Counted from the stretch's first letter, positions 17,332-34,587 are shown. The stretch: 64,000 bases of DNA from a bacterium (GCA_029561455.1 JAKQIY010000006.1:142860-206859); one strand, 5' to 3'. Program-made: numbers and translations. Notes: generated by a model from the letters alone, not told the origin.

Positions 17332-17441
17332 GTTATTTCCTGATATATATTAACTCTTCCGGCAATTTATTAATTACAGGGCCGGAAATTTTTTCTCCGC
17401 AGCTGCCTGAATGGACACCCGTGATTTATAAATATAATAAA

Positions 17442-20261
17442 TTATCGCAACAAAATCATCTTTTTTGTTTCACACCGGTTACCCACAGTTAATGTATAAA
17501 AATATATACCGCTTGTGGCCGGCACACCGGTTTCCGCCAGACCGTTCCAGGTGAGGCAATAAGAACCTGCCGGCTGACGCTCTTCATGCAGGGTAGCTAT
17601 TTTTTGTCCGCATACATTATATATGTACAGACTGGCCACGCCCGCTGCCGGCAAAGTATATGTAATTGTGGTTGTTGAATTGAACGGATTAGGGAAATTC
17701 ACGGCCAATTCAAACATATCCGGTATGTTTCCGGTCAGGGCATTAGTTTCTTCAACAGCGGTCTTTACGCTGCCCTGCAGCCATTCCAAAGTTTTTTCCA
17801 GCAGCTTGCGCCTGACATCATAACCGGAGTGTTTATTGTTAACCGCTTCCAGGCTGAATGCATAATAAACCAGTTTATACTTGCCGTTGTACCGGGTTGC
17901 TGCACATTGGCCGGGTATTTCCAGGTCGGTATAGGTTAAAAACGGTTCCGCCAGGGAATCGGGCGCTACCGCGCCGGGAGAAACCTGGTTGCCGGCGCCA
18001 TCGCCCCCGGCGGCATAAAAATATGGGCGAAATTCATCGGAAATAGGATCGCCTGCCAGTCCGGAAATCCTCAAGACCCCGGTAACCGGTACATTATCGG
18101 TCAATAAGCGGGCGTGCATCCAGTCTCTCAAAAAACTGCGCTGCACGTCATCGCCGTTTGCCATTTGTTTGCCGATATTCTGCCCGCATAACAACAGCTT
18201 CCAACCGCTGTACATCAAATACCGGAAATTTGCCATTTCATTAGGAGTAAAGGTCGCTTTCTGAGAACCGGTGAACCAGATAATCACGCCATAAGGGATC
18301 ATGTCATAGCGGGTGGGATTCTGTTTGTCCTTAACGCTCCACACATCATATTCAACATAATCTATGCCGTTCAGCGCATCCCGGTAATAATTCACTATCC
18401 GCTTTCCGTTTTTATCCGTCTCGTCCTGGCTGTCGTCTACCAATAATATCCGGTTGTTTTCCATATAGATGATCACATCACGGGTTATGGTATAGCCATT
18501 ATCGGCAGCCAGATGTAATTTACACAACAGCGGATGCCGGATTGTTCCCGCGGCCAAGGTTATTACAAAAGGATCGGCAACATTGGCCTGTATTTCATCT
18601 TCGCCAATACCTTTATACACAGCCTGCGCATCGGCTATATGCAGGGCAGGGTCGTCACTGCTCAATTGCGCATTTAAAGCATTGATATATCCACCATAAT
18701 TTTTTAACCTGATATACAGGTTGATTGTTTCACCAGGGTTGAGGTATTTACGCAGGGTATCCTGGTTCAGGTAATACCCGTCGCAGGCAATATCATCGGC
18801 AAACGCCTGGATATTGGCAATCATCGCAGATCCGTCACGATGAATATTTTCAACCGCTATTTTACTCGGCTTGCCGTCATAACCAAGCGAATTAGGTAGA
18901 CTGGTTCGGTTAAAATTACGGTTATTGGCGGCGCCGGGAAAGATATCACCCGCATTGCCCCGATTAAGGGCGCAATCCAGGTCGTCCTGCCCGTCCGCTT
19001 CTTCCAAATCTAAAAATTTGTGATTCTCAAAATCATTGCCAAGCAAATAGGACAGGCTATTATCAACATGCCACAATAAAAAACCTTCGCCCGGTAAATT
19101 GCTATCAAAACCGTGCTTTTGCCGGTTTTCCAGCAAAAAATATTCCCGACCCAGTTGTTCAACAAGCCCAAGATCGTTTTGATATATAAAAGGTGCAATT
19201 TGGCCTTTTGTCCATAATTTGTAAACTACCGGTTCGGTTTCACACGCCGGCACAGGCATATCGTCCAGGTTTTCGGTTAAAATCAGCGGCGTTACCCATC
19301 CCAGGGCTTGCTTACACCAGGCGCTAAAATGAACCGGCGTCTGCGGTGATTTGCCATTCCCGCCCCATGAGCCGTACCCCATTACACACCAGATTCCCAC
19401 TCCTGCTGAACTGTAATCGCGGTCATATAAATCCGGCAGACCCAAAGCATGACCAAATTCGTGACAAAAAACCCCGATGGAAACCATATCGTTCTGCTGC
19501 ATGGCCGGAACGATCATATAATCATCAATTAATATAGTTTCCCCACTAGCCCGGCTATCATTGGTCGTAAAACAATCACCGTTAAGTTTACTATATTGAG
19601 AAAAATGCGACCATATTTCCGGACCCCCGGCTTCTTCGGCGCCAACCCCGGAATGGACCAGGATAACGACGTCGACATAGCCGTCATCATCCCCGGAATT
19701 GGGAATACCGTCGCTGCCATCGTTATCATAAAGACTGAAATCAATACCGGTATCAAAAAAGGTCAATGCTTCTTTTAACAGCTCGCCTGCATTCCCCCGC
19801 TCGCGTTCATAATAAACGCTGTTGCCGGTTGCCTGGTACCAACCATACACATCACCATCCGGAATAAACCGGCTATATGATACTTCCCGGTAATAATCCT
19901 GCATGGAGCCGGTCGGCCAGGCGCCAAACAACATTTGCTGCAAATCGGCAATAGGCCATTCTTCCCTTTTTACATCCGCAAAGCGGACGCACAATACCGG
20001 CAGATCAACCGTTACGGGCGCCTGACGGTAGTCGGGGCTGGAGCCCCCGGCAAGTGTTTGGCTGCGATACATGCGCATGGTCTGCTGAAAACCGCGTTTT
20101 GCCCGGTAATAAACAGGGTCACGGGTAATGTTTTGCAGCATATCGGCTGGAATCCGAACTGTAGCTTCACGCGGAGGCGCAATTGCATAGACAAACGCTG
20201 GTAGTAAAATAATAACCAGAAATATTTTTTTCATCGTTTTATCAAGTGAACAAACCGGCAT
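17442..20261 (-). CDS. M6 family zinc metallopeptidase, a tandem paralog of the preceding gene, with a T9SS CTD.
   Basis: HEFGHALGLPDLYD is present, and the protein is collinear with 14497-17331 over its whole length, including the same GIPNSGDDDGYVDV block. The CTD reads NFPNPFNSTTTITYTLP...LYIYNVCGQKIATL...GIYFYTL...KKMILLR. An alternative start at MKKIFL (ATG 20234) would give a cleaner signal peptide. Confidence 0.7.
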   Translation of the reverse strand: MPVCSLDKTMKKIFLVIILLPAFVYAIAPPREATVRIPADMLQNITRDPVYYRAKRGFQQTMRMYRSQTLAGGSSPDYRQAPVTVDLPVLCVRFADVKREEWPIADLQQMLFGAWPTGSMQDYYREVSYSRFIPDGDVYGWYQATGNSVYYERERGNAGELLKEALTFFDTGIDFSLYDNDGSDGIPNSGDDDGYVDVVILVHSGVGAEEAGGPEIWSHFSQYSKLNGDCFTTNDSRASGETILIDDYMIVPAMQQNDMVSIGVFCHEFGHALGLPDLYDRDYSSAGVGIWCVMGYGSWGGNGKSPQTPVHFSAWCKQALGWVTPLILTENLDDMPVPACETEPVVYKLWTKGQIAPFIYQNDLGLVEQLGREYFLLENRQKHGFDSNLPGEGFLLWHVDNSLSYLLGNDFENHKFLDLEEADGQDDLDCALNRGNAGDIFPGAANNRNFNRTSLPNSLGYDGKPSKIAVENIHRDGSAMIANIQAFADDIACDGYYLNQDTLRKYLNPGETINLYIRLKNYGGYINALNAQLSSDDPALHIADAQAVYKGIGEDEIQANVADPFVITLAAGTIRHPLLCKLHLAADNGYTITRDVIIYMENNRILLVDDSQDETDKNGKRIVNYYRDALNGIDYVEYDVWSVKDKQNPTRYDMIPYGVIIWFTGSQKATFTPNEMANFRYLMYSGWKLLLCGQNIGKQMANGDDVQRSFLRDWMHARLLTDNVPVTGVLRISGLAGDPISDEFRPYFYAAGGDGAGNQVSPGAVAPDSLAEPFLTYTDLEIPGQCAATRYNGKYKLVYYAFSLEAVNNKHSGYDVRRKLLEKTLEWLQGSVKTAVEETNALTGNIPDMFELAVNFPNPFNSTTTITYTLPAAGVASLYIYNVCGQKIATLHEERQPAGSYCLTWNGLAETGVPATSGIYFYTLTVGNRCETKKMILLR

Positions 20262-20461
20262 CTTGATATAATTAGCCTGATATTGGCTTTCCTGAAAATA
20301 TGTTGTATCAATAAATTAAAAATTTTTTAATTTTGCTATTGCATTTATCAATCTTTTTTTTTATACTTCAACTAGTATAAAATACTATCCGGATTTAAAT
20401 TTTTACCTTACCAAGTTTACAAATAAAATTACTCATTTACCATAAAAAAAACGGATGAATT

Positions 20462-22951
20462 ATGAAGAAAATCTGTTTTCCGCTATTCCTGATGTGTATC
20501 CTGTCGGTTCATGCAGGGTACGCCGGTATAACCGGCACACTGGCCGGTAAAGTATTTGAGAAAGGCACCAATGAACCTTTACCCGGTACAAATATTATTT
20601 TAACAGGTACCACGCTGGGCGCTGCCGCTGATGAAAAAGGCTTTTTCCTGGTTAACAATATTCCAGCCGGCAAATATAATATACGGGTGGAAATGATCGG
20701 CTACAGAACATTGATCGTGGAAGATGTCACTATCCTCATGGATCTGCGCACGTCTTTACAGCTCGAACTGGAAGAAACCGTACTGGAAATGGAAGAGATC
20801 ACCGTTACGGCGCATTCTTCCATGATCCAGAAAGATGTTACGGCTACTACACATTTCATCAATCGCCAGGAAATAACCCGGCTGCCGGTGCTCTCTTTTA
20901 CCGATATTGTCGATATTCAGCCGGGAGTTGCCGCCGGTCATATCCGCGGCGGTCGTGAGAGCGAAGTATTATATATGGTAGACGGATTTCCAATCCAGGA
21001 AGTGATCGAAGGCAAAGTAGGTACGGAATTACCCATGACATCGATCATTGATATGACCGTACAAACCGGCGGTTTTAACGCCGAATATGGCAATGCCATG
21101 TCCGGAGTCGTGAACATTCTTACCCAGGATGGCGGCGAAAAGCTGGAAGCTATGACTGAATTCTCGATGCAAAAATTTCAGTCCATGCGTAATCCCTGGC
21201 GTGACCGGAAAAACGATGCGGACTGGATCAGTGAAATGTACCTGGGTGGTCCTCTGTTTACCCAAAAATTAAAATTTTATGTGGCCGGTGATGTGCGCGC
21301 TCCCCATACCCGCTGGAAACGAGAAGAATTCGGTCAGCGCATGATGATCTATAACTCCAAAAACGGTTGGAACATGAACCTGAACGGTAAACTGACTTGG
21401 GCGGCGTCCAATTCTTTTAAAATCAGAATTCAGGGCTTGTTGTCACTATGGGACTGGCAAGAATATGATCACAAATGGAGTAAAAATCTCGCTGTTTTGC
21501 CGGATCGGTCCAAAAAGAGCTACCGCACCAGTATAGCGCTTACCCATACACTCAGTCCTACCACTTTTTACGAATTGCGGTTGAGCCGGTACGATGTATT
21601 AAAATCCATTTATGGCGCTTCATCTATTGATATGGCAGGCGTGGAATATGAAAACAACGATCCCACCAGTTGGGTCATCGCCGGTGATTATCCCTGGTGG
21701 CTCGATCACCAGGAAATTCACAATACCGCCAAATTTGATTTCACATCACAACTGAACAATTACCACCAGCTTAAAGCCGGTCTTGAATTTGTATATTATG
21801 ACCTGTACAAAAAAAATGTACAGAGAATGGAAGTAAAAACATACGACCCGCAATTTCCACAGTATATCTCGTATGATACGGAATATCATTACTATCCCAA
21901 CCGCGGCGCCGCTTATGTACAGGACAAGATAGATTATGACGGGATGATTATAAATGTGGGCATACGCTATGACTATTTAGACCCCAGAGCACAGCGCCCT
22001 GCCCTGGAAGAAAAGGTCTATGGCCAGCGCCATACCTGGATCATTAACCAGGATAAAAAAGAACAGGCCTCCTTGAAACACCAGTTCAGCCCCCGGGTAG
22101 GTATTGCCATACCGATGGGCCCCGACCAGGAACTGCATGTTAATTATGGCTGGTTCTTCCAAATGCCGCTCTTTGATTACCTGTACACCAATTCGAACCT
22201 GAACCTGGCCGAAGGCTTTTCCCCGCTTGGCGATCCGGACCTGAAACCCTCCCGCACCATTTCTTATGAGGTCAGTTATAAAAACCAGATCAGGGAAAAA
22301 ACCCTGTTCGATTTTACCGTTTTTAATAAAGAGGTCAGCAACCTGGTCGATAATAACACTTACCTGGACAAGCAAAAAAATTCCCTCACCGGCACCGGTT
22401 ATTCCCGTTTCGTTAACCTGGAATTTGTCAATATCTGGGGCACTGAAATATATTTAAAACGGGACGTCAGCCAGTTCCTCTCCGGCAAGGTCAGCTATAC
22501 CTACATGGTCGCTAAAGGCACAGGGTCGGAAAACACTGAAAAATTCAACTGGATCACCAAAGACACCAAAGTACCGATCAGCGAATATTATCTAAGCTGG
22601 GATCAACGTCATACCCTGGTGACCAATATTGATTTTCGCAAACCCGATAACTGGGGTGTAAATTTATTGTGGCGCTGGAACAGTCCGCTGCCCTGGACCG
22701 AATACCGTGGCGTTGCCACAGAACCGAATAATAATCGCATGCATGTCATTACCAGCCTGGATATCCGGTTGAATAAAGACTTTATTATTGCAAATTATCC
22801 GGTCTCCCTGTTTGCCGAATTTATAAATGTTTTTGACCGCAAAAACCTGCTCTGGCAAGACTCTGAAGGCCGAGAAGGCGGTTATTTGAATGATCCAGGC
22901 GCCTGGGATGAACGGTATTGTTACCGCCTGGGTTTTAATGCAAAATTTTAA
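20462..22951 (+). CDS. TonB-dependent receptor family outer-membrane protein with an N-terminal carboxypeptidase-regulatory-like domain.
   Basis: There is a signal peptide. A CarboxypepD_reg-like beta-sandwich is present (GKVFEKGTNEPLPGTNIILTGTTLGAAADEKGFFLVNNIPAGKYNIRVEMIGY). A plug-like segment follows (ITVTA...IQKDVTATTHFINRQEITRLP...FTDIVDIQPGVA). The long, beta-rich C-terminus ends in ...RLGFNAKF, an OMP-style terminal Phe. Confidence 0.7.
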   Translation: MKKICFPLFLMCILSVHAGYAGITGTLAGKVFEKGTNEPLPGTNIILTGTTLGAAADEKGFFLVNNIPAGKYNIRVEMIGYRTLIVEDVTILMDLRTSLQLELEETVLEMEEITVTAHSSMIQKDVTATTHFINRQEITRLPVLSFTDIVDIQPGVAAGHIRGGRESEVLYMVDGFPIQEVIEGKVGTELPMTSIIDMTVQTGGFNAEYGNAMSGVVNILTQDGGEKLEAMTEFSMQKFQSMRNPWRDRKNDADWISEMYLGGPLFTQKLKFYVAGDVRAPHTRWKREEFGQRMMIYNSKNGWNMNLNGKLTWAASNSFKIRIQGLLSLWDWQEYDHKWSKNLAVLPDRSKKSYRTSIALTHTLSPTTFYELRLSRYDVLKSIYGASSIDMAGVEYENNDPTSWVIAGDYPWWLDHQEIHNTAKFDFTSQLNNYHQLKAGLEFVYYDLYKKNVQRMEVKTYDPQFPQYISYDTEYHYYPNRGAAYVQDKIDYDGMIINVGIRYDYLDPRAQRPALEEKVYGQRHTWIINQDKKEQASLKHQFSPRVGIAIPMGPDQELHVNYGWFFQMPLFDYLYTNSNLNLAEGFSPLGDPDLKPSRTISYEVSYKNQIREKTLFDFTVFNKEVSNLVDNNTYLDKQKNSLTGTGYSRFVNLEFVNIWGTEIYLKRDVSQFLSGKVSYTYMVAKGTGSENTEKFNWITKDTKVPISEYYLSWDQRHTLVTNIDFRKPDNWGVNLLWRWNSPLPWTEYRGVATEPNNNRMHVITSLDIRLNKDFIIANYPVSLFAEFINVFDRKNLLWQDSEGREGGYLNDPGAWDERYCYRLGFNAKF

Positions 22952-22963
22952 CATGGTAACTCT

Positions 22964-23971
22964 ATGGTAAAAACCCGTAACATGTTGTTTTTTATTCTGC
23001 TCACTACCCTTTCCTGCTGGAACAGACAAGATCATGACGTCACTCGTCCGGTTATTCCGCACTATTATTTTAATGGAACCGCGGTCGGTTATGATTCGGG
23101 GGAATCGCTGGAGGGTATTATTGTAGAACTGGCCGCCACCAAAATGTTGTATGATATCCAATTTTCTACACAGACCGATACTACGGACAGCAGCGGTCAT
23201 TTTTCATTCGACCCGGTCTATCCCGGTTATTATACCTGGAAAGTCAAAACCGACGGCTGCTGGCTTGCCAAACAAAAGCTGGAAATTGCCCATCACGACA
23301 GCTCTGCTATTATCCAGATCCCACAGCTCTTTTACGCCAGGGATTTTGGACGTCTTCCTGGTAGCGCACATCCTGCGCTGGCAATTAATGGTTCTACCGC
23401 ATGGTTAAACGAATTTTGGAGAGCAGGGGAAGATACCCCGCCATTTATAACTTCTGATCTTGTGCGGGTCTATAAACAAAAAAACCAGGTTTGGTTTTTT
23501 GAAAACTGGTATATTTCTCCTTTTTATCACAGGAATCTGACATCGATGACTTTTAGTCGGGAATTTTTATACGCCTGTGTCGCTCCGGACACATTGTACA
23601 TCGTTAACGTTTTAGATTGCCAGCTTTCCGGTAAATTCCAGCTATCGCAAAATATCACCGGGGTGGCGTTTAATCCACAGCAAAACTGTATTTATACCTG
23701 CTCAAAAAATAATTTGTACCGGCATGAAACGGAACAGCCTGTGAATATTGTGCAAAGCTGGAATTTTGACGATCAAACCCTCTCGGCTATTGCTTATTAC
23801 AAAGGTATTTACACCTATGATAACAACAGCTACCTGCTGAAAAAATATAATACCGGAATGAATATAGAATCAACATTTGCGCTTATCGATTCTGATTCGC
23901 AGAAACAAATTGCGAATATTTACGATATGAGTTTTGACGGTTACGGGCAGTTGTGGATTACTTTGCCATGA
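22964..23971 (+). CDS. Lipoprotein of an uncharacterised multi-copy family, copy 1 of the tandem array.
   Basis: A lipobox is present (LTTLSCW). A transthyretin/carboxypeptidase-regulatory-like N-domain is present (FNGTAVGYDSGESLEGIIVEL...SDSSGHFSFDPVYPGYYTWKV). The conserved C-terminal signature is YTCSKNNLYRHETEQP.NIVQSWNF...AYYKGIYTYDNNSYLLKKY...NIYDMSFDGYGQLWITLP. Confidence 0.75.
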   Translation: MVKTRNMLFFILLTTLSCWNRQDHDVTRPVIPHYYFNGTAVGYDSGESLEGIIVELAATKMLYDIQFSTQTDTTDSSGHFSFDPVYPGYYTWKVKTDGCWLAKQKLEIAHHDSSAIIQIPQLFYARDFGRLPGSAHPALAINGSTAWLNEFWRAGEDTPPFITSDLVRVYKQKNQVWFFENWYISPFYHRNLTSMTFSREFLYACVAPDTLYIVNVLDCQLSGKFQLSQNITGVAFNPQQNCIYTCSKNNLYRHETEQPVNIVQSWNFDDQTLSAIAYYKGIYTYDNNSYLLKKYNTGMNIESTFALIDSDSQKQIANIYDMSFDGYGQLWITLP

Positions 23972-24020
23972 AAGAATTATACTTTTCATAAACGCTACAT
24001 GAAATTGCAAAAGAGGGGTT

Positions 24021-25055
24021 ATGAAAGTAAAAATAAAAATTATAATCATTGTTGGTTTGTTACCCATAATACTTAATTGCTGGGATAAACAAAGTCATGA
24101 TATTACCAGGCCGCCAGTTCCACATTATATATTCAACGGAACAACAGTCGGATATAATTCGGGGGAATCGCTGGAGGGCATTATTGTAGAGCTGGAAGCC
24201 ACCAAAATGTTGTATGATATCCAATTCTCTACACAAACCGATACTTCGGACAGCAGCGGCCATTTCTCATTCGATCCGGTCTATCCCGGTTATTATACTT
24301 GGAAAGTCAAAACTGACGGCTGCTGGCTTGCCAAACAAAAGATGGAAATTACTCATCACGACAGCTCTGCTATTATCCAAATTCCACGGCTTTTTTACGC
24401 CAGGGATTTCAAAAGTCTCCCAGGCAGCGAACATCCGGCGCTGGCAATTTATGGTTCTACCGCATGGTGTAACGAATTTTGGATTGCAAAAGAAGATACT
24501 CCCCCTTTTATTACTTCTGATCTTGTGTGGGTTTATAAACAATCTAATAAAACCTGGTTTGCAGATAATTATTATATCTCCCCGTTTTACCATCGGAATT
24601 TAACTTCAATGGCTTTTGGACGCGAGGTTGTATATGCCTGTGTCGCTCCGGACACATTGTACATCGTTAACGTTTTAGATTGCCAGCTTTCCGGTAAATA
24701 CCAGCTATCGCAAAACATTACCGGGGTGGCGTATCATGCATCGCAAAACTGTATTTATACCTGCTCAAAAAATAATTTGTTCCGTCATGAAACCGAACAG
24801 CCGATAAATATTGTACAAAGCTGGAATTTTAACGATCAAACCCTCTCGGCTATTGCCTATTACAAAGGGTTTTATACTTTTGATAACAACAGTTACCTAT
24901 TAAAAAAGTATGATACCAGTATGAATATAGATTCAACTTTTGCGCTTATCGATTCTGATTCACAGAAACAAATTGCGAATATTTATGATATGAGTTTTGA
25001 CAGTTACGGGCAATTATGGTTTACTTTACCATTAAAGAATTATTCATTTCATTAA
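24021..25055 (+). CDS. Lipoprotein of the same family, copy 2.
   Basis: The signal is MKVKIKIIIIVGLLPIILNCW. Long stretches of DNA are more than 90% identical to copy 1. It has the same C-terminal signature (...NIYDMSFDSYGQLWFTLP). Confidence 0.75.
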   Translation: MKVKIKIIIIVGLLPIILNCWDKQSHDITRPPVPHYIFNGTTVGYNSGESLEGIIVELEATKMLYDIQFSTQTDTSDSSGHFSFDPVYPGYYTWKVKTDGCWLAKQKMEITHHDSSAIIQIPRLFYARDFKSLPGSEHPALAIYGSTAWCNEFWIAKEDTPPFITSDLVWVYKQSNKTWFADNYYISPFYHRNLTSMAFGREVVYACVAPDTLYIVNVLDCQLSGKYQLSQNITGVAYHASQNCIYTCSKNNLFRHETEQPINIVQSWNFNDQTLSAIAYYKGFYTFDNNSYLLKKYDTSMNIDSTFALIDSDSQKQIANIYDMSFDSYGQLWFTLPLKNYSFH

Positions 25056-25085
25056 CACAACTCCAAAAGCTGAAAAAGGGCTGTT

Positions 25086-26078
25086 ATGAAAGTAAAAATA
25101 AAACTAGTGGTCATTATTGGGCTATTGCAATTACTTAATTGCTGGAAAAAGCAAGATCACGATATAACACGTCCAATTATTCCACACTATATTTTTAATG
25201 GTACGATGGTTGATTATGATAGCGGTGAAAAACTGCCCAACATTATTATAAAATTAACAGCTTCCAGAATGCTTTATGATGTTAAATTTCCCACCCAGTC
25301 CGACACTTCCGACAGTAATGGAAATTTTTCTTTCGACCCGGTTTACCCCGGTTATTATACCTGGAGGGTGCAAAAAGAAGGGTGTTGGCTCAATGAAAAA
25401 AAACTGGAAATAGTGCATCGAGACTCTACATCTGTTATTGCGGTTCCGCACCTTTTTTATGGAAAAGTTTTTAAATTTCGCTCCAGTTATCCTGTTTTTG
25501 CTATTAATGGCACAAAGGCATGGTTCAATGTATATTCAATGACGCCTTATTTTAAAAGAGCGCAAATGTTTATCTTGTATGTTCTTACTAACGGAGTGTG
25601 GTTTGAAGAGGGTTATTACCTTTCACCTTTACGTAATAAAAAAGCTACATCTATGGCTTTTGGGAGAGATGCTTTATATGTGTGTATTGCACCGAATACA
25701 TTGTATTTAATAAATACTTTGGACGGAACCCTTATAGGTCAATACCAGATATCGCAAAATATTACAGCAGTAGCATATCACCCGCCACAAAATTGTATTT
25801 ACACCTGTTCAAAAAACAATTTATACCGGCACGAATCTGAGCAGCCCATTAATATAGTATCAAGTTGGAATTTTGAAAATCATACTTTGTCGGCTTTAGC
25901 CTATTATAAGGGTATATACACATACGATAACACAAATTACCTGTTAAGAAAATATAATACGGAAATGAATGTAGAGATCACATACGCATTTGTTGATTCA
26001 GATTTAAAAATTCAAATTCTCAATATTTACGATATGAGTTTTGACGGTTACGGGCAGTTGTGGGTTACATTGCTATGA
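25086..26078 (+). CDS. Lipoprotein of the same family, copy 3.
   Basis: The signal is MKVKIKLVVIIGLLQLLNCW. The N-domain is a variant (YTWRVQKEGCWLNEKKLEI). The C-terminus is ...NIYDMSFDGYGQLWVTLL. Confidence 0.75.
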   Translation: MKVKIKLVVIIGLLQLLNCWKKQDHDITRPIIPHYIFNGTMVDYDSGEKLPNIIIKLTASRMLYDVKFPTQSDTSDSNGNFSFDPVYPGYYTWRVQKEGCWLNEKKLEIVHRDSTSVIAVPHLFYGKVFKFRSSYPVFAINGTKAWFNVYSMTPYFKRAQMFILYVLTNGVWFEEGYYLSPLRNKKATSMAFGRDALYVCIAPNTLYLINTLDGTLIGQYQISQNITAVAYHPPQNCIYTCSKNNLYRHESEQPINIVSSWNFENHTLSALAYYKGIYTYDNTNYLLRKYNTEMNVEITYAFVDSDLKIQILNIYDMSFDGYGQLWVTLL

Positions 26079-26128
26079 TAGAGTTATTAATTTTTAAATA
26101 CAACTCCAAAAGCTGAAAAAGGACTGTT

Positions 26129-27127
26129 ATGAAAGTAAAAATAAAAATTATCGTCATTATTGGTTTGCTGTCCCTGGTATTTAATTGCTGGGACAAACAA
26201 AACCATGATATTACCAGGCCCATAGTTCCACATTACATATTTAATGGAACCGCGGTCGATTATGATTCGGGGGAATCGCTGGAGGGCATTATTGTCGAAC
26301 TGGCCGCCACCAAAATGTTATATGATATTCAATTTTTTACACAAACCGATACGACCGACAGCAGCGGTCATTTTTCATTCGACATGGTCTACCCCGGATA
26401 TTATACCTGGAGAGTGCAAAAAGAAGGGTGTTGGCTCAATGAAAAAAAACTGGAAATAAAGCATCGGGACTCTACATCTGTTATCGCTGTTCCGCACCTT
26501 TTATATGGAAAAATTTTCGATCTTCGTGGCTCCAGTCATCCTGCTTTTGCTATTAATGGCACAAAGGCCTGGTTCAGTACTTATTCCATGACGCCTTATT
26601 TTAAAAGAGCGCAAATGTTTTTCGTATATACTCTTACTAACAGAGGCTGGTTTGAAGAGGGTTATTACCTTTCACCTTTATACAAAAAAAACGTTACCTC
26701 AATGGCCTTTGGAAGAGATGCTTTATATGTATGTGTTGCGCCGGATACATTGTATTTAATAAATACTATGGACGGAAGTCTTACAGGTAAATACCAAATG
26801 AAACAAAATATTACAGCAGTAGCATATCACCCGCCACAAAATTGTATTTATACCTGTTCTAAGAATAATTTATACCGGCACGAATCAGAGCAGCCCATTA
26901 ATATAGTATCAAGTTGGAATTTTGAAAATCATACATTGTCGGCTATCGCCTATTATAAAGGTATATACACGTATGATAACACAAATTACCTGTTAAGAAA
27001 ATATTCTACGGAAATGAATGTAGAAATTACTTATGCACTTGTTGATGCAGATTCAAAAATTCAAATTCTAAATATTTATGATATGAGTTTTGATGGCTAT
27101 GGGATGTTGTGGGTTACTTTGCCTTGA
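26129..27127 (+). CDS. Lipoprotein of the same family, copy 4 (mosaic).
   Basis: The first ~90 residues are near-identical at the DNA level to copy 1 (GESLEGIIVELAATKMLYDIQF.TQTDTTDSSGHFSFD). The remainder follows copy 3 (YTWRVQKEGCWLNEKKLEI.HRDSTSVIAVPHL...). The upstream 45 bp are near-identical to those upstream of copy 3. Confidence 0.75.
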   Translation: MKVKIKIIVIIGLLSLVFNCWDKQNHDITRPIVPHYIFNGTAVDYDSGESLEGIIVELAATKMLYDIQFFTQTDTTDSSGHFSFDMVYPGYYTWRVQKEGCWLNEKKLEIKHRDSTSVIAVPHLLYGKIFDLRGSSHPAFAINGTKAWFSTYSMTPYFKRAQMFFVYTLTNRGWFEEGYYLSPLYKKNVTSMAFGRDALYVCVAPDTLYLINTMDGSLTGKYQMKQNITAVAYHPPQNCIYTCSKNNLYRHESEQPINIVSSWNFENHTLSAIAYYKGIYTYDNTNYLLRKYSTEMNVEITYALVDADSKIQILNIYDMSFDGYGMLWVTLP

Positions 27128-27174
27128 GTACATTTATTTTTATAAAAGCTACTTAAAATTGCAAAAGAGGGATT

Positions 27175-28215
27175 ATGAATGTAAAAATTAAAATTATAAT
27201 CATTATTGGGTTGTTACCCATAATATTCAATTGCTGGAAAAAACAGGGTAACGAAATAACCCGCCCTGCGGTGCCGCATTATCAGTTAAGCGGCACAACT
27301 CTTGATTATGACAGCGGAGAAATACTGCCTCACATTACAATTCAGGTAAAAGCCGTTACCATGCTTTATAGTGATGTAACTTTTACTGACGTTATAACCG
27401 AATCGGACAGCGTCGGAAAATTTATTTTTGATCCGATTTATCCCGGTAATTATGTGCTTGCTATAAATACTGAAAATGCCTGGCATTCCAGCAAAAACAT
27501 TGAAATTGCCCATTCTGACAGATCTATTGATCTTTTAATCCCGCAGGTGCAATTTGCCACCTATTTACCAAAAAGTTACCAAGCTTCAAACGATATGGAT
27601 ATTACAAAGGTAAAAAAAAATGCAGCTTTTTGTATTGATCAAAGTACCTGTTATATTAATTGTGCTCATGATCACTACCCGCTTCCACCAACTGAAATTT
27701 CAATCTTTAAAAAAGAATATATCAGGTGGGTTTATGAAAAGCCATTAAATCCGGGAATTGACTATGATTCATTTTTTAAAATGACCTGTGATTATAATAA
27801 TCTGTTAATACTGGCAAAAAACGATACTATTATACCTGTGAATAAATGGACTGGTTATGCAGGCAGAAAAATCAAACTAGCGGGGCTTGCAAGTTTGCAG
27901 GATTTAGTTTTTAACCAAACGGATAACTTTCTTTATGCATGCACTCCAACAGAAATACTGAAATTAAGTGCAACGGATTACTCAATTCTGGGTAGCTATC
28001 AGTTCCCAACCAGAAATTATGATGCAATAGCATGCAATAATACGATCTTTACTTTTGATAAAGCAGATTATTTACTCCGTCAGCACAACGCCAATATGCA
28101 AATTATAAAGACTTTTGTTATCATTAATTCTGTAGATATGAGCCAAATAACAAAGTTATATGATTTTGACTTTGATGGTCTAAAAAACCTTTGGGTTATG
28201 CCCTTGATAGAATAA
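27175..28215 (+). CDS. Lipoprotein of the same family, copy 5 (most divergent).
   Basis: The signal is MNVKIKIIIIIGLLPIIFNCW, and the signal plus upstream region are near-identical to copy 2. The body is divergent but keeps the family skeleton (PHYQLSGTTLDYDSGEILPHITIQV...IYPGNYVL...LYDFDFDGLKNLWVMPL). Confidence 0.7.
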   Translation: MNVKIKIIIIIGLLPIIFNCWKKQGNEITRPAVPHYQLSGTTLDYDSGEILPHITIQVKAVTMLYSDVTFTDVITESDSVGKFIFDPIYPGNYVLAINTENAWHSSKNIEIAHSDRSIDLLIPQVQFATYLPKSYQASNDMDITKVKKNAAFCIDQSTCYINCAHDHYPLPPTEISIFKKEYIRWVYEKPLNPGIDYDSFFKMTCDYNNLLILAKNDTIIPVNKWTGYAGRKIKLAGLASLQDLVFNQTDNFLYACTPTEILKLSATDYSILGSYQFPTRNYDAIACNNTIFTFDKADYLLRQHNANMQIIKTFVIINSVDMSQITKLYDFDFDGLKNLWVMPLIE

Positions 28216-28241: not shown

Positions 28242-29744
28242 TTATCGCCAATCCGCCATTTGGGCATTAGTATAAAGTTGTTTGCGGTTTTCACCGTTGC
28301 TGTCCATCACCCATACGGATGACGCTGTTGAATTATCATTTGCCACATTAGTAAAAAGGATCTTGCCGCCATCGGGAGACCACACCGGATCCAGATCGTT
28401 GGTGCCGGCCGTTTTCTTGGATGAGATATTTGTCGTATCGCCGCTGCTGATATTAACGACAATCAGCTGCGCATCCAGCATTCTGCCGCTGCTCACCTGG
28501 TGCCCGGCAACATCACGATAATAGACAATTTTGTCCCCGGCCGGTGAAAATGACGGATGCCCCATAATTCCCGGCAAATTTTCCACAACCAGGGTCAAAT
28601 CGCCGTTATCCGGATTGACCAGGTAAATTTCACTATCCCATTCCTGCTCGCCAATTGTCAAAGCAACAATTTTATTGCTGACAGAGGTCCAATCCAAATC
28701 CCGGAAATGTCGCCCATCCGGTGCGGTGGCTATTTGCTGTAACTGCCCGCCGGTGGCGTCGATCTGGTACAATTTATTATAGTTGGCGTACAAAATTTTC
28801 TGCCCGTTACCGGCCCAGCAAAATCCTCTCCCATAATTAAAATAACCATCCACGGGTGTGGTGGTAATTTTTTGCACATTTGCGCCGTCGCGGTTCATGG
28901 TATAAATATGCGTTACAATATCCCGATCAGATGTAAAAGCGATTTTATCTCTGGTGGGGCACAGTTTGGGATACCAGTCCCGGCCTACAGCCCAGGTAAG
29001 TAGAATAGAATCGGTTCCGGCTGTATTGCCGGAATATATGTTATAATCGCCATCGCTGTTGCCGGCAAATAATATCGGGTAATCCGGTAACGGGAGGGTG
29101 GTAAAACTCCAGGCCGGTCCGTTAATTTCCGTTCCGCTCAAATCGCGCGCTACGATCTGCCAGTGATACGTGGTATTGTATAAAAGCCGGTTTAACGCGT
29201 AACTTGTATCTTGCAATTGCGAGGAAATAAGTTGGAATGCCGAATTGCCATTGCCCAAATATATATCAAAGCTTAATGTATCGTCATCATCCGGGTCCCG
29301 GCTACTCCAGGTCAACGACAACGAGATCGGTTGATTGACGGCGCCGTTGGCGGGAACCGGTTTTGATGGAATTGTTGGCGCATTATTGGCGGCAGCGCTT
29401 TTCGTTAACAGGATAGTGGCGATAGCCGTCTTGTGCTGTTTTACTTCTACAGATACAGACCCGGATTTATACCCGGTTTTAACTGCTTTAACGATATATG
29501 TATTTTCGCTGATATCTGTAAGAAAAAATTTTCCATCAGCATCGGTTATCACCGCGTCGCTGGCCGGGGAGGTAGTTATACTTGCTCCTGCCACCGGTAA
29601 ATTACTCTCCGCATCCAGCACTTGCCCGTTTATAGCGCCATTAGTTTCAGGCTCTACCGGGTCTTCGGTACATGAAAACCACCCCGCCATACACACCAGT
29701 AATCCATAGCAAACTAGCTTGATTATGCCTTTTTCCAATATCAT
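28242..29744 (-). CDS. TolB-like (PD40/WD40-like beta-propeller) lipoprotein with an N-terminal carboxypeptidase-regulatory-like domain.
   Basis: A lipobox is present (MAGWFSCTED). A CarboxypepD_reg-like segment is present (INGQVLDAESNLPVAGASITTSP...DADGKFFLTDISENTYIVKAVKTGYK). Several PD40-like repeat units follow (IAFTSDRDIVTHIYTMNRDGANVQKIT; NGDLTLV...; GGKILFTN...SVWVMDSNGENRKQL). Confidence 0.55.
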   Translation of the reverse strand: MILEKGIIKLVCYGLLVCMAGWFSCTEDPVEPETNGAINGQVLDAESNLPVAGASITTSPASDAVITDADGKFFLTDISENTYIVKAVKTGYKSGSVSVEVKQHKTAIATILLTKSAAANNAPTIPSKPVPANGAVNQPISLSLTWSSRDPDDDDTLSFDIYLGNGNSAFQLISSQLQDTSYALNRLLYNTTYHWQIVARDLSGTEINGPAWSFTTLPLPDYPILFAGNSDGDYNIYSGNTAGTDSILLTWAVGRDWYPKLCPTRDKIAFTSDRDIVTHIYTMNRDGANVQKITTTPVDGYFNYGRGFCWAGNGQKILYANYNKLYQIDATGGQLQQIATAPDGRHFRDLDWTSVSNKIVALTIGEQEWDSEIYLVNPDNGDLTLVVENLPGIMGHPSFSPAGDKIVYYRDVAGHQVSSGRMLDAQLIVVNISSGDTTNISSKKTAGTNDLDPVWSPDGGKILFTNVANDNSTASSVWVMDSNGENRKQLYTNAQMADWR

Positions 29745-29835
29745 TGGCTTGCGTCCCTTCCCTCACATGTTTTTTATTGTCAAGATAATAAATTCCGGAT
29801 AATATGCAAAACATTTTTCACTTTATTAACAATTA

Positions 29836-30996
29836 TTAATGATCCGGCCCGGAAATAAATATATCGACACGCCGGTTTTTAATTCTTCCTTCCGCACTAT
29901 TATTTTCGGTCAGCGGGGCATAACAGGACTGCCCGGCTGAAAGCAAATTTCGACCATCATAACCCGAAACCGCCTGTAGCACTTTAACAACCCGGGCCGA
30001 TCTTAATGCCGACAGTTCCCAGTTACTGAATTTGTTTTTCTCCAGTTCATTAGAAAATGGAACTGCATCGGTATGTCCAACTACCATTAACTGAAAATCA
30101 CTATTTTTTGGTTTTTTCAATACTTGTGCTAAACGAAACAAGGCTTCTTCACCCCTGAGACGTAAATAGTCGCTTCCGGAAATAAATGCACTTTTCCCCG
30201 CCAAAGTATAACATAATTTATTGCCATGCCAGGATAACAACACATCGCCATTAATAATATCAATATGCAATGCGGTTTGTAATTCTTCATACAACGATTG
30301 CAATGCTGCGGATATATGTCCCTCCGGCGGGTTTGTTCCCGGAACAACTAGAGTATGATAATCAAATTCCTCTTTCCCCTGTAACGATTGCGTCAACTCC
30401 ACTAATTGTATATCCCTGGCTTTCAGTTCTGCACGTAAATTCGTTATCACCTGGTTATCCTGCGTCACCTGTTCTTCCAACTCTACTACTTTATCCTGTA
30501 GTAATTTAAAATTATCTGCAATCTGTTCCTGGGCTTGGTTTTCTGTAATATTACTAAAGGTTCCTGCCGCTATTGAACTTGTTTCCTTTGCATCAGCCGG
30601 TTTTAAAAAACCGGCGCGGATATAAACCCTGCCGGTTTGGTTTTTTCCTGTGGCCTTTAGATTAATAAATCCCTGATGTTCAATTTTTTGACCCTCAGGA
30701 ATGATAATAAATACTGTCAGCTTTTTTTTCTGACCGGCGCTTATTTCAACCCGTTTTGGGGATACCTCGAGCCAGGTAGTATCATAATCTGTTTCCACCC
30801 TGAGACCGGCTTTACCACTGTTGGTAACCTCCACCTCGCGTATCTCCAACCCACCCTCCGGCATAATAACTTCAATTTGTAAGGGCTCTATGAGTAATGC
30901 CGGTTCACAATAACTGTTAACAGCGCTAATTAACAGTATTAACGCCAGAATTATAAATATAGTATTTTTCACTTTTTCCTGCTCTGCAAATATCAA
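29836..30996 (-). CDS. OmpA/MotB-family protein with an OmpA-like C-terminal peptidoglycan-binding domain.
   Basis: The C-terminus reads VVGHTDAVPFS...SNWELSALRSARVVKVL...GQSCYAPLTENNSAEGRIKNRRVDIFI, a canonical OmpA_C-like block. There is an N-terminal signal or TM segment and a central coiled-coil. Confidence 0.7.
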   Translation of the reverse strand: MIFAEQEKVKNTIFIILALILLISAVNSYCEPALLIEPLQIEVIMPEGGLEIREVEVTNSGKAGLRVETDYDTTWLEVSPKRVEISAGQKKKLTVFIIIPEGQKIEHQGFINLKATGKNQTGRVYIRAGFLKPADAKETSSIAAGTFSNITENQAQEQIADNFKLLQDKVVELEEQVTQDNQVITNLRAELKARDIQLVELTQSLQGKEEFDYHTLVVPGTNPPEGHISAALQSLYEELQTALHIDIINGDVLLSWHGNKLCYTLAGKSAFISGSDYLRLRGEEALFRLAQVLKKPKNSDFQLMVVGHTDAVPFSNELEKNKFSNWELSALRSARVVKVLQAVSGYDGRNLLSAGQSCYAPLTENNSAEGRIKNRRVDIFISGPDH

Positions 30997-31111: not shown

Positions 31112-32416
31112 TTAATTGTTTTGGTTAACTATTGAAATATTATAATCGCCATACTGATTAATTGTCGATTGATGTAAATCACCGGTCTGGGTGGTAATAG
31201 CGCCGTTATAATCACCAATGTGGTAATTGGTTGCCTTGTTAAAATCACCGGTCTGTATGATAGTAATAGGATCCGGGTTACTATCGGAACCGCCAATGTC
31301 GAGCGTACCATTGTTATTATGCTCACCGAGCGTCAAATTAAATGCCTTGTTATTGTTGCCTGTTTGCAAAGTGAGGTGTTTGTTCTCATAATTATAACCA
31401 CCACCTACCCGTGATTCCGAATAATTGGAATTGCCGGTTTGTTCCACAACGGATGAATTGTTGCCACCCCAAAAATATAGTTTGGATACATTATCATCAC
31501 CAATTTGCTGAACAAAGCCATAATTGGCATCATCATATCGCTGGTCAAAACGGGCGTCGTTACGGTTGCCGGTTTGAATGATCTTGCCTTCGTTATCATC
31601 ACTGTCGCCATCCAGCCCTTGCTGCAGAATATTGGTGTTATCGCTACCGGTTTGTACTGATGCAGCCAGGTTGTTACTTTGGGCCTGGGAGATGGTTGAT
31701 TTATTTCTACCGGCTGTACCGGTCGCCAGGGGCGCGATGCTTTGTGAAGCGGTGTTATTATCTCCAATCTGGCTGATTAACCCTTTATTGTTGTGATCCA
31801 GAAAAGTGAACCCGGATGCGTTCATTGTCTGGGTCGATTTATTCATACTACCGTTTTGCAGAGATTCAAAATAGTTACCACTACCGGCCGGAATGCCGCC
31901 CACACCGAGGTTCTGAAAAGCATCGTTAGCTGTGCCGGTTTGAGAAATTTTTACTTCACTACCACCGGCGTGTACGCGGGTACTAGCAATATTAAGAGCT
32001 CCCTGCTGAAACACATTCGAGGTATTGCTGTTACGCTCATGGCGTACAGTAGCCTGGTTTTCAGTGCCTTCCTGTATAACCGTAGAGTTGTGATTGTCGT
32101 GATGCATCATATAAACATCTGCATCATTACCATCACCTGTCTGGTTTACCTGGGCATGCATACCACCCCAGGGACTGGAAACCTGTTCAACCTTGGTTTC
32201 ATTTGCATTGCCGGACTGGGTTATGTCAACCGAATTATAATTGGAATTTGCCGGGACGTCTTTGGATTGAATGACAGACACCTGGTTTCCGGAACCAGCC
32301 TGATCAACAGTTGCGGCATTATTTGCCCCGGTCTGATCCAGAGATGTATTGTTCCCGGCCGCCAGGGTTAGCGTAATCATTAAAAACAGACAAACGGGTA
32401 TAAAAAGACCTTTCAT
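31112..32416 (-). CDS. Curlin-repeat (CsgA/CsgB-like) secreted protein, 434 aa.
   Basis: A signal peptide is present. The body is N/Q/G/T-rich with degenerate repeats of the curlin type, Q.G..N.A...Q (VDQAGSGNQVSVIQ, ITQSGNANETKVEQ, VNQTGDGNDADV, ISQTGTANDAFQ, IIQTGNRNDARFDQ, VEQTGNSNYSE, IIQTGDFNKATNY). It lies in the same operon as csgEFG. Confidence 0.65.
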   Translation of the reverse strand: MKGLFIPVCLFLMITLTLAAGNNTSLDQTGANNAATVDQAGSGNQVSVIQSKDVPANSNYNSVDITQSGNANETKVEQVSSPWGGMHAQVNQTGDGNDADVYMMHHDNHNSTVIQEGTENQATVRHERNSNTSNVFQQGALNIASTRVHAGGSEVKISQTGTANDAFQNLGVGGIPAGSGNYFESLQNGSMNKSTQTMNASGFTFLDHNNKGLISQIGDNNTASQSIAPLATGTAGRNKSTISQAQSNNLAASVQTGSDNTNILQQGLDGDSDDNEGKIIQTGNRNDARFDQRYDDANYGFVQQIGDDNVSKLYFWGGNNSSVVEQTGNSNYSESRVGGGYNYENKHLTLQTGNNNKAFNLTLGEHNNNGTLDIGGSDSNPDPITIIQTGDFNKATNYHIGDYNGAITTQTGDLHQSTINQYGDYNISIVNQNN

Positions 32417-32450
32417 TATTTAACTCCTTGAAAAATTATAATATCAGTCC

Positions 32451-33395
32451 TTAATTTGTGCGTGTTACCTTGACAATACTGCCGTTACCGGTTTGGGTGA
32501 TAATTCCACCTAACCCGCTGCCAAAAACATTCAATTCGCCATAATGGTTGGCGCCATACTGGTTTATTTGTAACCGGTCGGCGTCTCCATCCTGGTTAAT
32601 ATCGCTTTTACCGTTATTTAATCCGATAGAGGTAATATAGGCTGTATTATTTCCTCCGTTTTCCTGGGATATTTTAGCATTGCTGCCGGTATCGCTATTA
32701 CTATTTAATGGATTGACCAGGTTTATCGCTGCCGTATTATTGCTGATCATTCCCTCACGACCCTGTTCGATGGTGGCGGAATGATTATCGCCAACCAACA
32801 AAATACTTACCGGCTGGGTATTGCTACCATTATAACTGCCATTGCTGATAATTGTGGCTTTATCTTCCTGCGAACGGCTTTGGTTACCGGCAATCAAGAT
32901 CAGAGAATTATTATGGTTGCCATCCTGACTGATTGTAGCTTCACCCCGATTCGATGGCCAGAGAATTTTTTCCTCGGCATTATTATAATTACCGGCCTGG
33001 GAAATAATTGCCGAGGAGGCATCGGCCGTTGTTACCTGGGAAGCCAGGTTCCAGTTCCCGGTTTGGGTAATTTTTTGCATGCCCAAATTGTTGCCGGCAA
33101 GATGGTTTTGGCTTGCTTCATTCCTGTAACCCTTTTGTGTGATCTGCTGTTTGTAGGCATTATAAACATCAAATGAAGAATTTAACTGAAATGCTTCATT
33201 GCGGGAACCGTTCTGTTCAATAAGCGATACCGAATTGCTGACTTTTTGAATAACATTAACAGCATTCTCAAATCCGATTTGCTCGATCATCACCTGGTTA
33301 TTATTACCGATCTGATCAATTGTGGCGGTTTGCTGAGCATTCCCGGGTGGACAAAAAAACAAGATCAGGATCGCAGGATAGCATAATTTCTTCAT
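32451..33395 (-). CDS. Curlin-repeat (CsgA/CsgB-like) secreted protein, 314 aa.
   Basis: Clear curlin repeats are present: ATIDQIGNNNQVMIEQIGFENAVNVIQ; IEQNGSRNEAFQ; ITQKGYRNEASQ; ITQTGNWNLASQ; ISQAGNYNNAE; ISQDGNHNNS; INQDGDADRLQINQYGANH. A signal peptide is present. Confidence 0.75.
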   Translation of the reverse strand: MKKLCYPAILILFFCPPGNAQQTATIDQIGNNNQVMIEQIGFENAVNVIQKVSNSVSLIEQNGSRNEAFQLNSSFDVYNAYKQQITQKGYRNEASQNHLAGNNLGMQKITQTGNWNLASQVTTADASSAIISQAGNYNNAEEKILWPSNRGEATISQDGNHNNSLILIAGNQSRSQEDKATIISNGSYNGSNTQPVSILLVGDNHSATIEQGREGMISNNTAAINLVNPLNSNSDTGSNAKISQENGGNNTAYITSIGLNNGKSDINQDGDADRLQINQYGANHYGELNVFGSGLGGIITQTGNGSIVKVTRTN

Positions 33396-33561
33396 TTCAT
33401 CCTCGAAATATTTACCAGCTTTTTAATTCATAATTGTTTTTATTGACTCAGTCAATGTAATTAGCATATTATTATGATAATGTGATTTTTGGTTTATTTA
33501 AACACGGCAGCAACACAAGCTGCCGTGTTCACTATTTGTGCCTTATATCTGCTTGTCGATT

Positions 33562-34587
33562 CTATGGATTCTGTGTTACGATTGCCTGATTGTTATTACC
33601 GGTTTGGGTAATTGTTCCGGTATGACCTGTACCAGTGGACAGAATTGAGGCAATATTGTTATCGCCGATTTGGGATATAGAACCCTTGTTCAAATCGCCG
33701 GTCTGGCTGATATCGGCAATATTATTGTTGCCGCCAATAAACTCGGTAGCATCGTTTTTATACCCATCCTGGGCAATTGTAGCGGTATTAAAATCACCAT
33801 AATATGTCGATGGCAAGTGCTGAAATGCTTTATTCGAACCGGTTCCGTATTGTTCCACTTTAGCCAGGTTATTATCACCGTTTATCCATTGTGTCACATT
33901 ATTACTGTTACTGGATGATAGCGCTGTGCCCTGAACAATAATAGTCTCATTAAAGGAACCAACTACCGCGGTGCTCGCTTTATTGGCCGTACCAAATTGT
34001 TCCATTGAACCTTCATTTTCGGAGCCTCTTTGGTTTAACCCTGCGGTATTGTTTGACCCTTCCTGATCTATATAAGCGCTATTCAGATAACCGCCATACT
34101 GTACCAGTTCGGTTACCTGGTTATTGTCGCCATTGATTTGGTTGATAATTGCGGAATGCCCTTCGCCATTTTGCTTGACAGCCGGGTTATAGGCATAGAC
34201 AAAATCGCCAACCTTATTATTATTACCAACCTGCGTAATAACTGTTGAATTGGCATTACCATTTTGCTGAACCGCTTCGGTTACACCGGTGGCGGTACGA
34301 AACTGGCTGACTTTATTTCCCGTGCCGTTTTGCTGAATATCGACCATATTTGCCGAACCAACCTGATTCACACCCAGGGCTGCCGGTTCGGAAGGAGTGC
34401 CGACGATATTGCCATCTCCGCCGCCCTGGTCGATCGCCGATATATTATCAGTTCCGCTTTGATTGACTTTAGCATAATTTGAACCAGATGCCTGATTTAC
34501 TGTTGAGCTATTTCCGGCAGCTAAAACAAAACTGGCCAGGACCATTACAAGTAATATAATAAATCTTGTTTTCATCATCATCCTCAC
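33562..34587 (-). CDS. Curlin-repeat (CsgA/CsgB-like) secreted protein, 341 aa.
   Basis: A signal peptide is present. The repeats include VNQASGSNYAKVNQSGTDNISAIDQ, VNQVGSANMVDIQQNGTGNKVSQ, VQQNGNANSTVITQVGNNNKV, IDQEGSNNTAGLNQRGSENEGSMEQFGTANKA, ISQTGDLNKGSISQIGDNNIASI and ITQTGNNNQAIVTQNP. Confidence 0.7.
   Translation of the reverse strand: MRMMMKTRFIILLVMVLASFVLAAGNSSTVNQASGSNYAKVNQSGTDNISAIDQGGGDGNIVGTPSEPAALGVNQVGSANMVDIQQNGTGNKVSQFRTATGVTEAVQQNGNANSTVITQVGNNNKVGDFVYAYNPAVKQNGEGHSAIINQINGDNNQVTELVQYGGYLNSAYIDQEGSNNTAGLNQRGSENEGSMEQFGTANKASTAVVGSFNETIIVQGTALSSSNSNNVTQWINGDNNLAKVEQYGTGSNKAFQHLPSTYYGDFNTATIAQDGYKNDATEFIGGNNNIADISQTGDLNKGSISQIGDNNIASILSTGTGHTGTITQTGNNNQAIVTQNP

Follow-up and report, generated by a model that had tools for sequence, protein, structure and literature searches.

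The window, a 64,000-nucleotide stretch of bacterial DNA (GCA_029561455.1, JAKQIY010000006.1:142860-206859), contains a gene for a TonB-dependent transporter (TBDT) that is directly followed by five paralogous genes for predicted lipoproteins, with a sixth paralog lying apart. On the open reading frame (ORF) map, the TBDT gene (829 aa, also analyzed with Pfam, AlphaFold2 [AF2], and Foldseek) occupies 20462-22951 on the plus strand. The paralogs, here called c1 to c6, lie at 22964-23971 (c1, 335 aa), 24021-25055 (c2, 344 aa), 25086-26078 (c3, 330 aa), 26129-27127 (c4, 332 aa), and 27175-28215 (c5, 346 aa), all on the plus strand, and at 46994-47968 on the minus strand (c6, 324 aa). These coordinates and strands are exactly those of a first-pass annotation made from the sequence alone. 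The gap between the TBDT gene and c1 is 12 bp, and successive copies are separated by 49, 30, 50, and 47 bp, which agrees with the 30-50 bp spacing that had been reported. Every copy has its own start codon and ribosome-binding site, although c1, which begins 12 bp past the TBDT stop codon, shows no Shine-Dalgarno-like sequence of its own. End-to-end alignment of the six proteins separates a close group, c1 to c4 (60-83% identity), from the distant c5 and c6 (~31-32%); identity to c1 is 83% for c2, 60% for c3, 65% for c4, 32% for c5, and 31% for c6.

Four genes for type IX-secreted proteases (6404-20261) are transcribed divergently from the TBDT gene. They encode a C25 protease (6404-10333), an S8 protease (10355-14440), and two M6 proteases (14497-17331 and, nearest to the TBDT gene, 17442-20261), all on the minus strand and assigned by Pfam/NCBIfam matches together with a Por_Secre_tail; a further S8 gene, recognized by Pfam/NCBIfam, lies at 899-3163. 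The AT-rich intergenic region between the last M6 gene and the TBDT gene (20262-20461) is presumed to be a shared control region. A scan of the window for promoters and terminators gave counts no higher than in shuffled sequence and none inside the intergenic gaps. Likewise, a search of Rfam for a riboswitch that might give a clue to the substrate returned zero matches in the window, including upstream of the TBDT gene.

The lipoprotein family and its predicted architecture

Each protein of the family is predicted to consist, in order, of 1) a signal peptide with a lipobox-like [SGNA]-C, 2) a conserved peptide of ~17 residues, 3) a beta-sandwich, and 4) a small beta-propeller. In a 67-member alignment, whose extremes share ~20% identity, the peptide after the Cys is the most conserved stretch of the whole family, with the consensus C-W-x-[KR]-Q-x-[HN]-[DE]-[IV]-x-x-P-x-x-P-x-Y-x-[LF]-[SNT]-G. 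Only the Cys, Q+5, and P+12 are invariant (67/67), while W+2 is found in 55 members, K/R+4 in 57, P+15 in 64, and Y+17 in 63. The Cys comes directly after the hydrophobic stretch and is preceded by S, G, N, or A in 61/67 members. The signal peptides thus appear to be of the lipoprotein type, since the residues at -1 fit a lipobox, though the Asn found there in c2 to c5 is atypical. The motif CW(D/K/N)(K/R)Q, close to the lipobox CW(D/K/N)KQ.H singled out in the first-pass annotation, is present in all six copies of the window.

The annotation had also proposed a transthyretin-like N-terminal domain, for which there are two types of evidence. Matches to PF13620 in the window copies are sub-threshold (17.7-30.5 bits vs. 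a cut-off of 32.3) and 57 of the 67 family members match it at E<0.01, while the AF2 model of c1 (pLDDT 88, pTM 0.81, built from an alignment of only 11 sequences) has a signal helix followed by a beta-sandwich (residues 34-119) and by 19 strands over residues 121-333. In this monomer model, residues 21-30, which correspond to the conserved peptide, are of low confidence, as would be expected for a peptide that becomes ordered only on a partner. The C-terminal domain (~215 residues, 19 strands) is most likely a five-bladed beta-propeller, its best structural matches being five-bladed propellers, while a Foldseek comparison of the lipoprotein with PDB structures yielded nothing beyond generic WD40 matches (TM score <0.4). 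Divergence is greatest over residues 121-215, i.e., the linker and blades 1-2: here the identity of c1 to c3 is 44%, as against 72% in blades 3-5. Across the 67 members no polar residue of the propeller is invariant, the best being D286 (79%) and D325 (75%). Since none is conserved above ~80%, a binder or scaffold is favored over an enzyme.

We next considered whether the family resembles anything known. The propeller belongs to no family in Pfam or NCBIfam, and NCBI names the proteins after their CarboxypepD_reg domain alone. As the annotation had stated, the family is without a name, for Pfam returns nothing beyond the sub-threshold N-domain matches and NCBIfam returns nothing. When the 67-member profile was compared with the PDB, the top propeller match was BtuG1 (8ptd/8ptf), with an E value of 1.2e-7 for the whole sequence and ~0.002 per domain. 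The earlier view that these proteins bear no resemblance to transporter-associated lipoproteins therefore needs qualifying: they have a propeller domain whose best PDB propeller match is such a lipoprotein, albeit weakly per domain. The C-terminal signature described at the same time holds for c1 to c4 and is recognizable only loosely in c5 and c6. When 1.84 billion cluster representatives were searched exhaustively with a profile, ~90 full-length relatives of 320-365 aa emerged, the other matches being to the common sandwich domain inside giant proteins, while a word-seeded search with c1 alone found only 9 proteins. The family is undescribed in the literature that we searched, on KSB1/Calditrichota with TonB, proteases, or type IX secretion and on five-bladed propeller lipoproteins with TBDTs. 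Judging from these searches, the c1-c6 family is rare and previously unnamed.

The transporter

The product of 20462-22951 is a true TBDT, classical in both size and fold. It is composed of a signal peptide, a CarboxypepD_reg-like N-terminal extension (residues 26-115), a plug (123-216), and a beta-barrel, with Pfam scores of 69 bits for PF13715, 46 bits for PF13620, and 30.3 bits for the plug PF07715 (cut-off 23.9). In its AF2 model (pLDDT 81, pTM 0.81), a sandwich at the N terminus is followed by a plug and a barrel, and its fold neighbors by Foldseek are PfeA (E 2e-28), FepA, BtuB, and FecA, with E values ranging from 2e-28 to 1e-22 at 12-16% identity. There are more than 4000 homologs across the Fibrobacterota-Chlorobiota-Bacteroidota (FCB) group and neighboring phyla, and plug and barrel motifs are invariant across 50 of these. 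By sequence, the single PDB match is the N-terminal extension of RagA (E 2.8e-4). Assignment to the SusC/RagA proteins was rejected because the TIGR04056 score, obtained over the N-terminal half only, is 42 bits and thus below the cut-off of 368, and because the partner is not a tetratricopeptide repeat (TPR) protein. No genes for ExbB, ExbD, or TonB were found among the window ORFs examined.

Pairing of transporter and lipoprotein genes in other genomes

How often the two genes occur together was determined in 21 distinct family-bearing loci, from metagenome-assembled genomes (MAGs) labeled KSB1, Calditrichota, or Marinimicrobia and from unclassified MAGs; loci other than the window carry numbers between L001 and L028, and absence of a TBDT gene was judged within the DNA fetched. 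The closest MAGs carry the KSB1 label, by which the organism of the window may be assigned to that group. A TBDT of the same family directly adjoins the lipoprotein gene(s) in 13/21 loci. The transporter gene comes first in the window, L001, L003, L005/L006, L010, L011, L016, L018, L020, and L022 (the last two from Marinimicrobia), while the lipoprotein genes come first in L026 (at least two copies), L027 (one copy), and L028 (three copies). The number of copies after the TBDT gene varies, with one in L001, L016, and L018, three in L003 and L011, four in L010, and five in the window. Because this adjacency is kept through an inversion of gene order and across several phyla, it argues for functional coupling. 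The pairing is the best available evidence for a functional partnership and indicates an association that is frequent rather than obligatory. The first-pass annotation had taken the position beside a TBDT gene as that of a lipoprotein partner and had suggested a survey of related genomes; MAGs labeled KSB1, Calditrichota, and Marinimicrobia do retain the pairing, with either gene coming first.

The protease neighbors recur as well. Divergently transcribed genes for type IX-secreted M6, S8, and C25 proteases are found beside the closer loci L001, L005/L006, L010, and L011, and S8 proteases flank L016 and L018.

Two further observations concern individual loci. In L020 (Neomarinimicrobiota), the family member after the TBDT gene is split at 7938-8742 into two overlapping frames, each matching the profile in its N-terminal part, which suggests a frameshifted copy or one that was duplicated and decayed. 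In L027, the lipoprotein/TBDT pair (421-3292) lies ~1 kb downstream of lgt, encoding prolipoprotein diacylglyceryl transferase, which is probably coincidental.

Growth, age, and selection of the array

The first-pass annotation had described the copies as mosaics, which we examined using sliding-window identity, strings of informative sites, and a maximal-segment permutation test. Two junctions are statistically significant. Along its length c4 tracks its sister c3 (85-97% DNA identity), except at 26248-26389 (+), within the transthyretin-like domain, where 131/142 positions (92.3%) match c1 23077-23218 and 93/142 (65.5%) match c3 (p<1e-4). This c1-like tract, which we regard as an old conversion tract, covers approximately codons 40-87 rather than the first 90 codons as had been proposed, and the intervals that had been called near-identical (23095-23215 and 26262-26382) are 4 bp out of register, true identity being 92%, with a longest exact c1/c4 run of 27 bp. 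The second junction is in c2, where 23983-24144 (+), a 5' module made up of intergenic DNA and ~41 codons, with the ribosome-binding site, signal peptide, and post-Cys motif, is c5/c4-like and not c1-like (p<2e-4), while the body is c1-like.

Pairwise comparisons fit the same picture. In the 125 bp surrounding the start codon, identity is 82% both between c2 and c5 and between c3 and c4, while that of c1 to all the others is 45-49%, and the signal peptides of c2 and c5 share 84% amino acid identity vs. 17-42% for the bodies. The pairing of upstream regions and signal peptides as c2 with c5 and c3 with c4, and of bodies as c1 with c2 and c3 with c4, had thus been read correctly. An interior-type 5' end joined to a c1-type body, as seen in c2, is the expected product of unequal crossover between an interior copy and c1. 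In the tree, c1 is orthologous to the single copy of the nearest relatives, L005/L006, and c1 to c4 form a lineage-specific expansion. The older paralog c5 has its ortholog in the KSB1 locus L003, of which it is the middle copy (a2; 43% identity by tblastn). These findings show that the array grew by tandem duplication and unequal crossing-over, which left two clear hybrid junctions.

The exchanges are not recent. Synonymous divergence (dS) is 0.61 for c1-c2 and 0.59 for c3-c4, which equals that between c1 and its L005 ortholog in the nearest other genome (0.59), and the c1-like tract of c4 still has a dS of ~0.3-0.5. The ratio of nonsynonymous to synonymous divergence (dN/dS) lies at 0.14-0.18 in all pairs, with no 30-codon window above 1, and the longest exact run common to any two copies is 64 bp. 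The c4 protein is found on at least nine contigs, and two independent assemblies from different samples and assemblers (ENA ERZ27257428 and JGI 3300009783) match the window across the whole array at 12999/12999 and 12998/12999 bases, i.e., 100% and 99.99% over 13 kb. Taken together, a dS of ~0.6, low dN/dS, repeats of 64 bp at most, and identity between samples indicate that exchanges were old and few, and these seem to be side effects of unequal crossing-over as the array grew. All copies are kept by purifying selection, and the array is invariant between the samples compared.

G+C content at third codon positions (GC3) falls along the operon, from 0.52 in the TBDT gene to 0.45 in c1, 0.38 in c2, 0.32 in c3, 0.35 in c4, and 0.31 in c5, with flanking genes at ~0.50. 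A similar drop from the TBDT gene to the downstream copies is seen in L003 and L010. Lower expression of the distal copies, or a different origin, could be the cause.

Other genes in the window

Most of the large window genes examined encode secreted or cell-surface products. Convergent with the array, two minus-strand genes at 28242-30996 encode a 500-aa protein, in which CarboxypepD_reg and fn3 domains are combined with a TolB/PD40-type propeller, and a 386-aa protein that has a coiled coil and, C-terminally, an OmpA domain; their combined domain set recalls PorE, a component of the type IX secretion system (T9SS). Next comes a large curli-type locus (31112-42115, -), the second tandem paralog array of the window, with seven curlin-repeat genes (31112-32416, 32451-33395, 33562-34587, 34663-36522, 36624-37499, 37690-38610, and 38643-39545), CsgG (39667-41091), and CsgE (41543-42115), all on the minus strand. 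A 454-aa ORF at 43401-44765 (-) has no Pfam match and is overlapped by opposite-strand ORFs of 318, 195, 142, and 109 aa. Its neighbors include an 89-aa ORF (44969-45238) and a SatD-family gene (45491-46120). From 42 to 46 kb, GC skew takes strongly negative values (-0.20 to -0.22). The region at 43209-44765 may be a mobile or defense islet.

The solo paralog c6, which has no adjoining transporter gene, is divergent from, and adjoins, a gene for a T9SS-tailed CotH protein (48205-49860), and the region 2504-9011 of L008 holds a solo copy 2.9 kb from one for a T9SS CotH protein. This proximity may be coincidental or reflect another type of association. Further large type IX-secreted proteins are encoded in a row at 51072-63341 (+), comprising two LVIVD-repeat/NosD-like proteins (51072-53609 and 53993-57454), an ASH/DUF1573 immunoglobulin-like protein (58423-59859), and an InhA-like MAM protein (59886-63341), all on the plus strand.

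Discussion

We favor, with some reservation, the interpretation that these proteins are outer-membrane lipoproteins that act as substrate-capturing partners, i.e., lids or accessory binders, of the adjoining TBDT. That they would form lids on the cell surface, and that the substrate would be peptides, are each less certain than the partnership itself. The conserved post-Cys peptide might tether or dock every paralog alike, either as a strap that follows the wall of the barrel, in the manner of the BtuG linker on BtuB, or as a surface-sorting signal. The propeller would then bind the cargo, the most variable part being the linker and blades 1-2. Judging from synteny, the cargo would probably be oligopeptides freed by the neighboring type IX-secreted M6, S8, and C25 proteases, by analogy with RagAB and the gingipains. 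From its position and codon usage, c1 may be the ancestral and primary partner, with c2 to c5 broadening or tuning the cargo range. The GC3 gradient and the 12-bp distance to the TBDT stop codon hint, weakly, that c1 is the main partner and the other copies are lower-expressed alternatives. Put together as one model, a single TBDT would be served by up to five interchangeable small-propeller lids that share a post-Cys dock and receive several classes of protease-made peptides, with array size changing by unequal crossing-over in KSB1, Calditrichota, and Marinimicrobia. We offer this full model only tentatively, and doubt that all of its parts will prove correct.

Several observations weigh against a partnership of this kind. 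Of the 21 loci, 8 have solo copies or arrays with no TBDT gene, including c6, L008, L012-L015, L017, and L019, and a close TBDT homolog in Gemmatimonadota has no lipoprotein neighbor. The similarity to BtuG is weak per domain (independent E value ~0.002), and unrelated propellers, such as that of virginiamycin B lyase, reach scores almost as high. The transporter has the fold of classical siderophore and vitamin B12 receptors and is not specifically RagA/SusC-like, so that it is synteny that carries the assignment to peptides. An acidic lipoprotein export signal is known in Bacteroidota, and the post-Cys motif differs from it; surface placement is thus a prediction.

The lipoproteins might face the periplasm, on the inner leaflet of the outer membrane, where they would take cargo from the TBDT or bind its CarboxypepD_reg extension. 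This periplasmic domain has the same fold as the lipoprotein sandwich, the post-Cys motif is not the acidic signal generally known from Bacteroidota, and export of lipoproteins to the surface is not known from these phyla. However, the structurally characterized propeller lipoproteins encoded beside TBDTs, BtuG and XusB, are all extracellular lids, and secreted proteases as neighbors favor capture outside the cell, which makes a periplasmic orientation rather unlikely. We give still less weight to the possibility that the proteins serve type IX secretion or the surface proteases, as anchor, chaperone, or regulator, with the TBDT linkage being secondary. It would account for the T9SS cargo genes around the arrays, for c6 and the L008 copy near CotH proteins, and for the eight loci with no TBDT gene, but across inversion and phyla the TBDT is the sole constant direct neighbor, whereas T9SS cargo genes vary from locus to locus. 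The fold by itself suggests yet another function, namely that the propeller is a membrane-tethered enzyme acting on peptides, such as a glutaminyl cyclase of the plant/bacterial type or a lyase. This we consider very unlikely because identity to such enzymes is 8-11%, no copy matches the Pfam glutaminyl cyclase family (Glu_cyclase_2) at E<=1, the propeller has no invariant acidic or other polar residue among the 67 members, and Gln is not the first residue of the adjoining proteases once their predicted signal peptides are removed.

The remaining alternatives concern the array rather than the function of its products. The first-pass annotation had seen in it ongoing gene conversion, as in a cassette for antigenic variation or substrate diversification, and there are indeed two clear mosaic junctions and a copy number that differs between related genomes. 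However, the closest copies have diverged to a dS of ~0.6, dN/dS stays at 0.14-0.18 even when the conversion tract is included, exact shared runs do not exceed 64 bp, the two independent assemblies carry the same array, and there is no invertible, expression-site, or silent-copy architecture. Ongoing exchange is therefore not supported, and a variation cassette is highly improbable; our findings have no bearing on antigenic variation. That the mosaicism might be an artifact of collapsed or chimeric repeats deserved attention because tandem paralogs in metagenome contigs are a classic source of chimeras. We find this scarcely credible, since the copies are 65-84% identical in DNA with no exact run above 64 bp and the same structure recurs in at least nine contigs, two of which were compared base by base as described above. 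In this respect the annotation, which had named collapsed repeats as a possible objection, is upheld.

To our knowledge, lipoprotein-assisted TonB-dependent uptake has been solved structurally only in Bacteroidota (SusCD, RagAB, BtuBG, and XusAB) and in a few Proteobacteria. The locus described here points to an unrelated, unnamed partner family in uncultured lineages of the FCB group, which are abundant in sediments and digesters. Unusual in this family are the combination of a sandwich with a small propeller, the degree of conservation of the post-Cys peptide, and the repeated occurrence of tandem arrays next to one transporter and a set of secreted proteases. If correct, this would shed light on the uptake of nutrients derived from protein by these organisms. 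It would also yield a candidate signal by which surface lipoproteins outside Bacteroidota might be docked or sorted, and an example from nature of one barrel with a choice of several partners. A "multi-lid" arrangement, should it exist, would be a way to widen substrate range, combined with a lipoprotein sorting or docking signal unlike the Bacteroidota export signal.

Comparison with known systems

The closest parallel in principle is BtuBG, the vitamin B12 system of Bacteroides thetaiotaomicron, in which a TBDT gene likewise adjoins a gene for a propeller lipoprotein and BtuG1 is our best PDB propeller match. In BtuBG, the linker after the lipidated Cys is pinned along the barrel by loops (PMC10404256), which suggests a possible role for the post-Cys peptide here. 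There are clear differences, since BtuG has seven blades and no transthyretin-like domain, in contrast to approximately five blades and a sandwich in our family, and there is one BtuG per BtuB, in another phylum, as against up to five copies here. Neither a B12 riboswitch (Rfam) nor a btu context was found at the locus. A comparable division of labor is seen in XusA-XusB, used by Bacteroides for xenosiderophore piracy, where a surface propeller lipoprotein hands its cargo to a TBDT and XusB homologs bind different ligands via variable loops on a conserved scaffold (PMC13142918). XusB is, however, a seven-bladed DUF4374 protein that lacks an additional sandwich domain, whereas our family has no DUF4374 match in Pfam and the window shows no iron-related context.

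In its genomic context, the locus is more reminiscent of RagAB/SusCD. The TBDT carries a CarboxypepD_reg extension, as does RagA (PDB 6sli), and the gene for its putative lipoprotein partner lies directly beside its own. The locus also has T9SS proteases, among them a gingipain-like C25 enzyme, which would suggest peptide import. RagAB reportedly imports peptides (Madej et al. 2020) and works with gingipains in Porphyromonas, and SusCD imports glycans. The partners differ, RagB and SusD being alpha-helical TPR proteins, while ours combine a sandwich with a propeller and lack a SusD signature. The SLAM-dependent TbpB, LbpB, and HpuA of Neisseria are also adjacent lipoproteins that catch cargo for a TBDT, but they have an unrelated fold (barrel and handle lobes) and evolve under strong diversifying selection, whereas dN/dS is ~0.16 here. 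The five-bladed glutaminyl cyclase and YjiK structures (3mbr, 3nok, and 3qqz) are alike in fold only, at 8-11% identity and with no conserved catalytic residues.

Taken together, these comparisons show a family that resembles BtuBG and XusAB in principle and RagAB in context and is a member of none of them. It is set apart by three features, namely conservation of the post-Cys peptide, tandem arrays of several copies that recur next to one barrel, and occurrence outside Bacteroidota.

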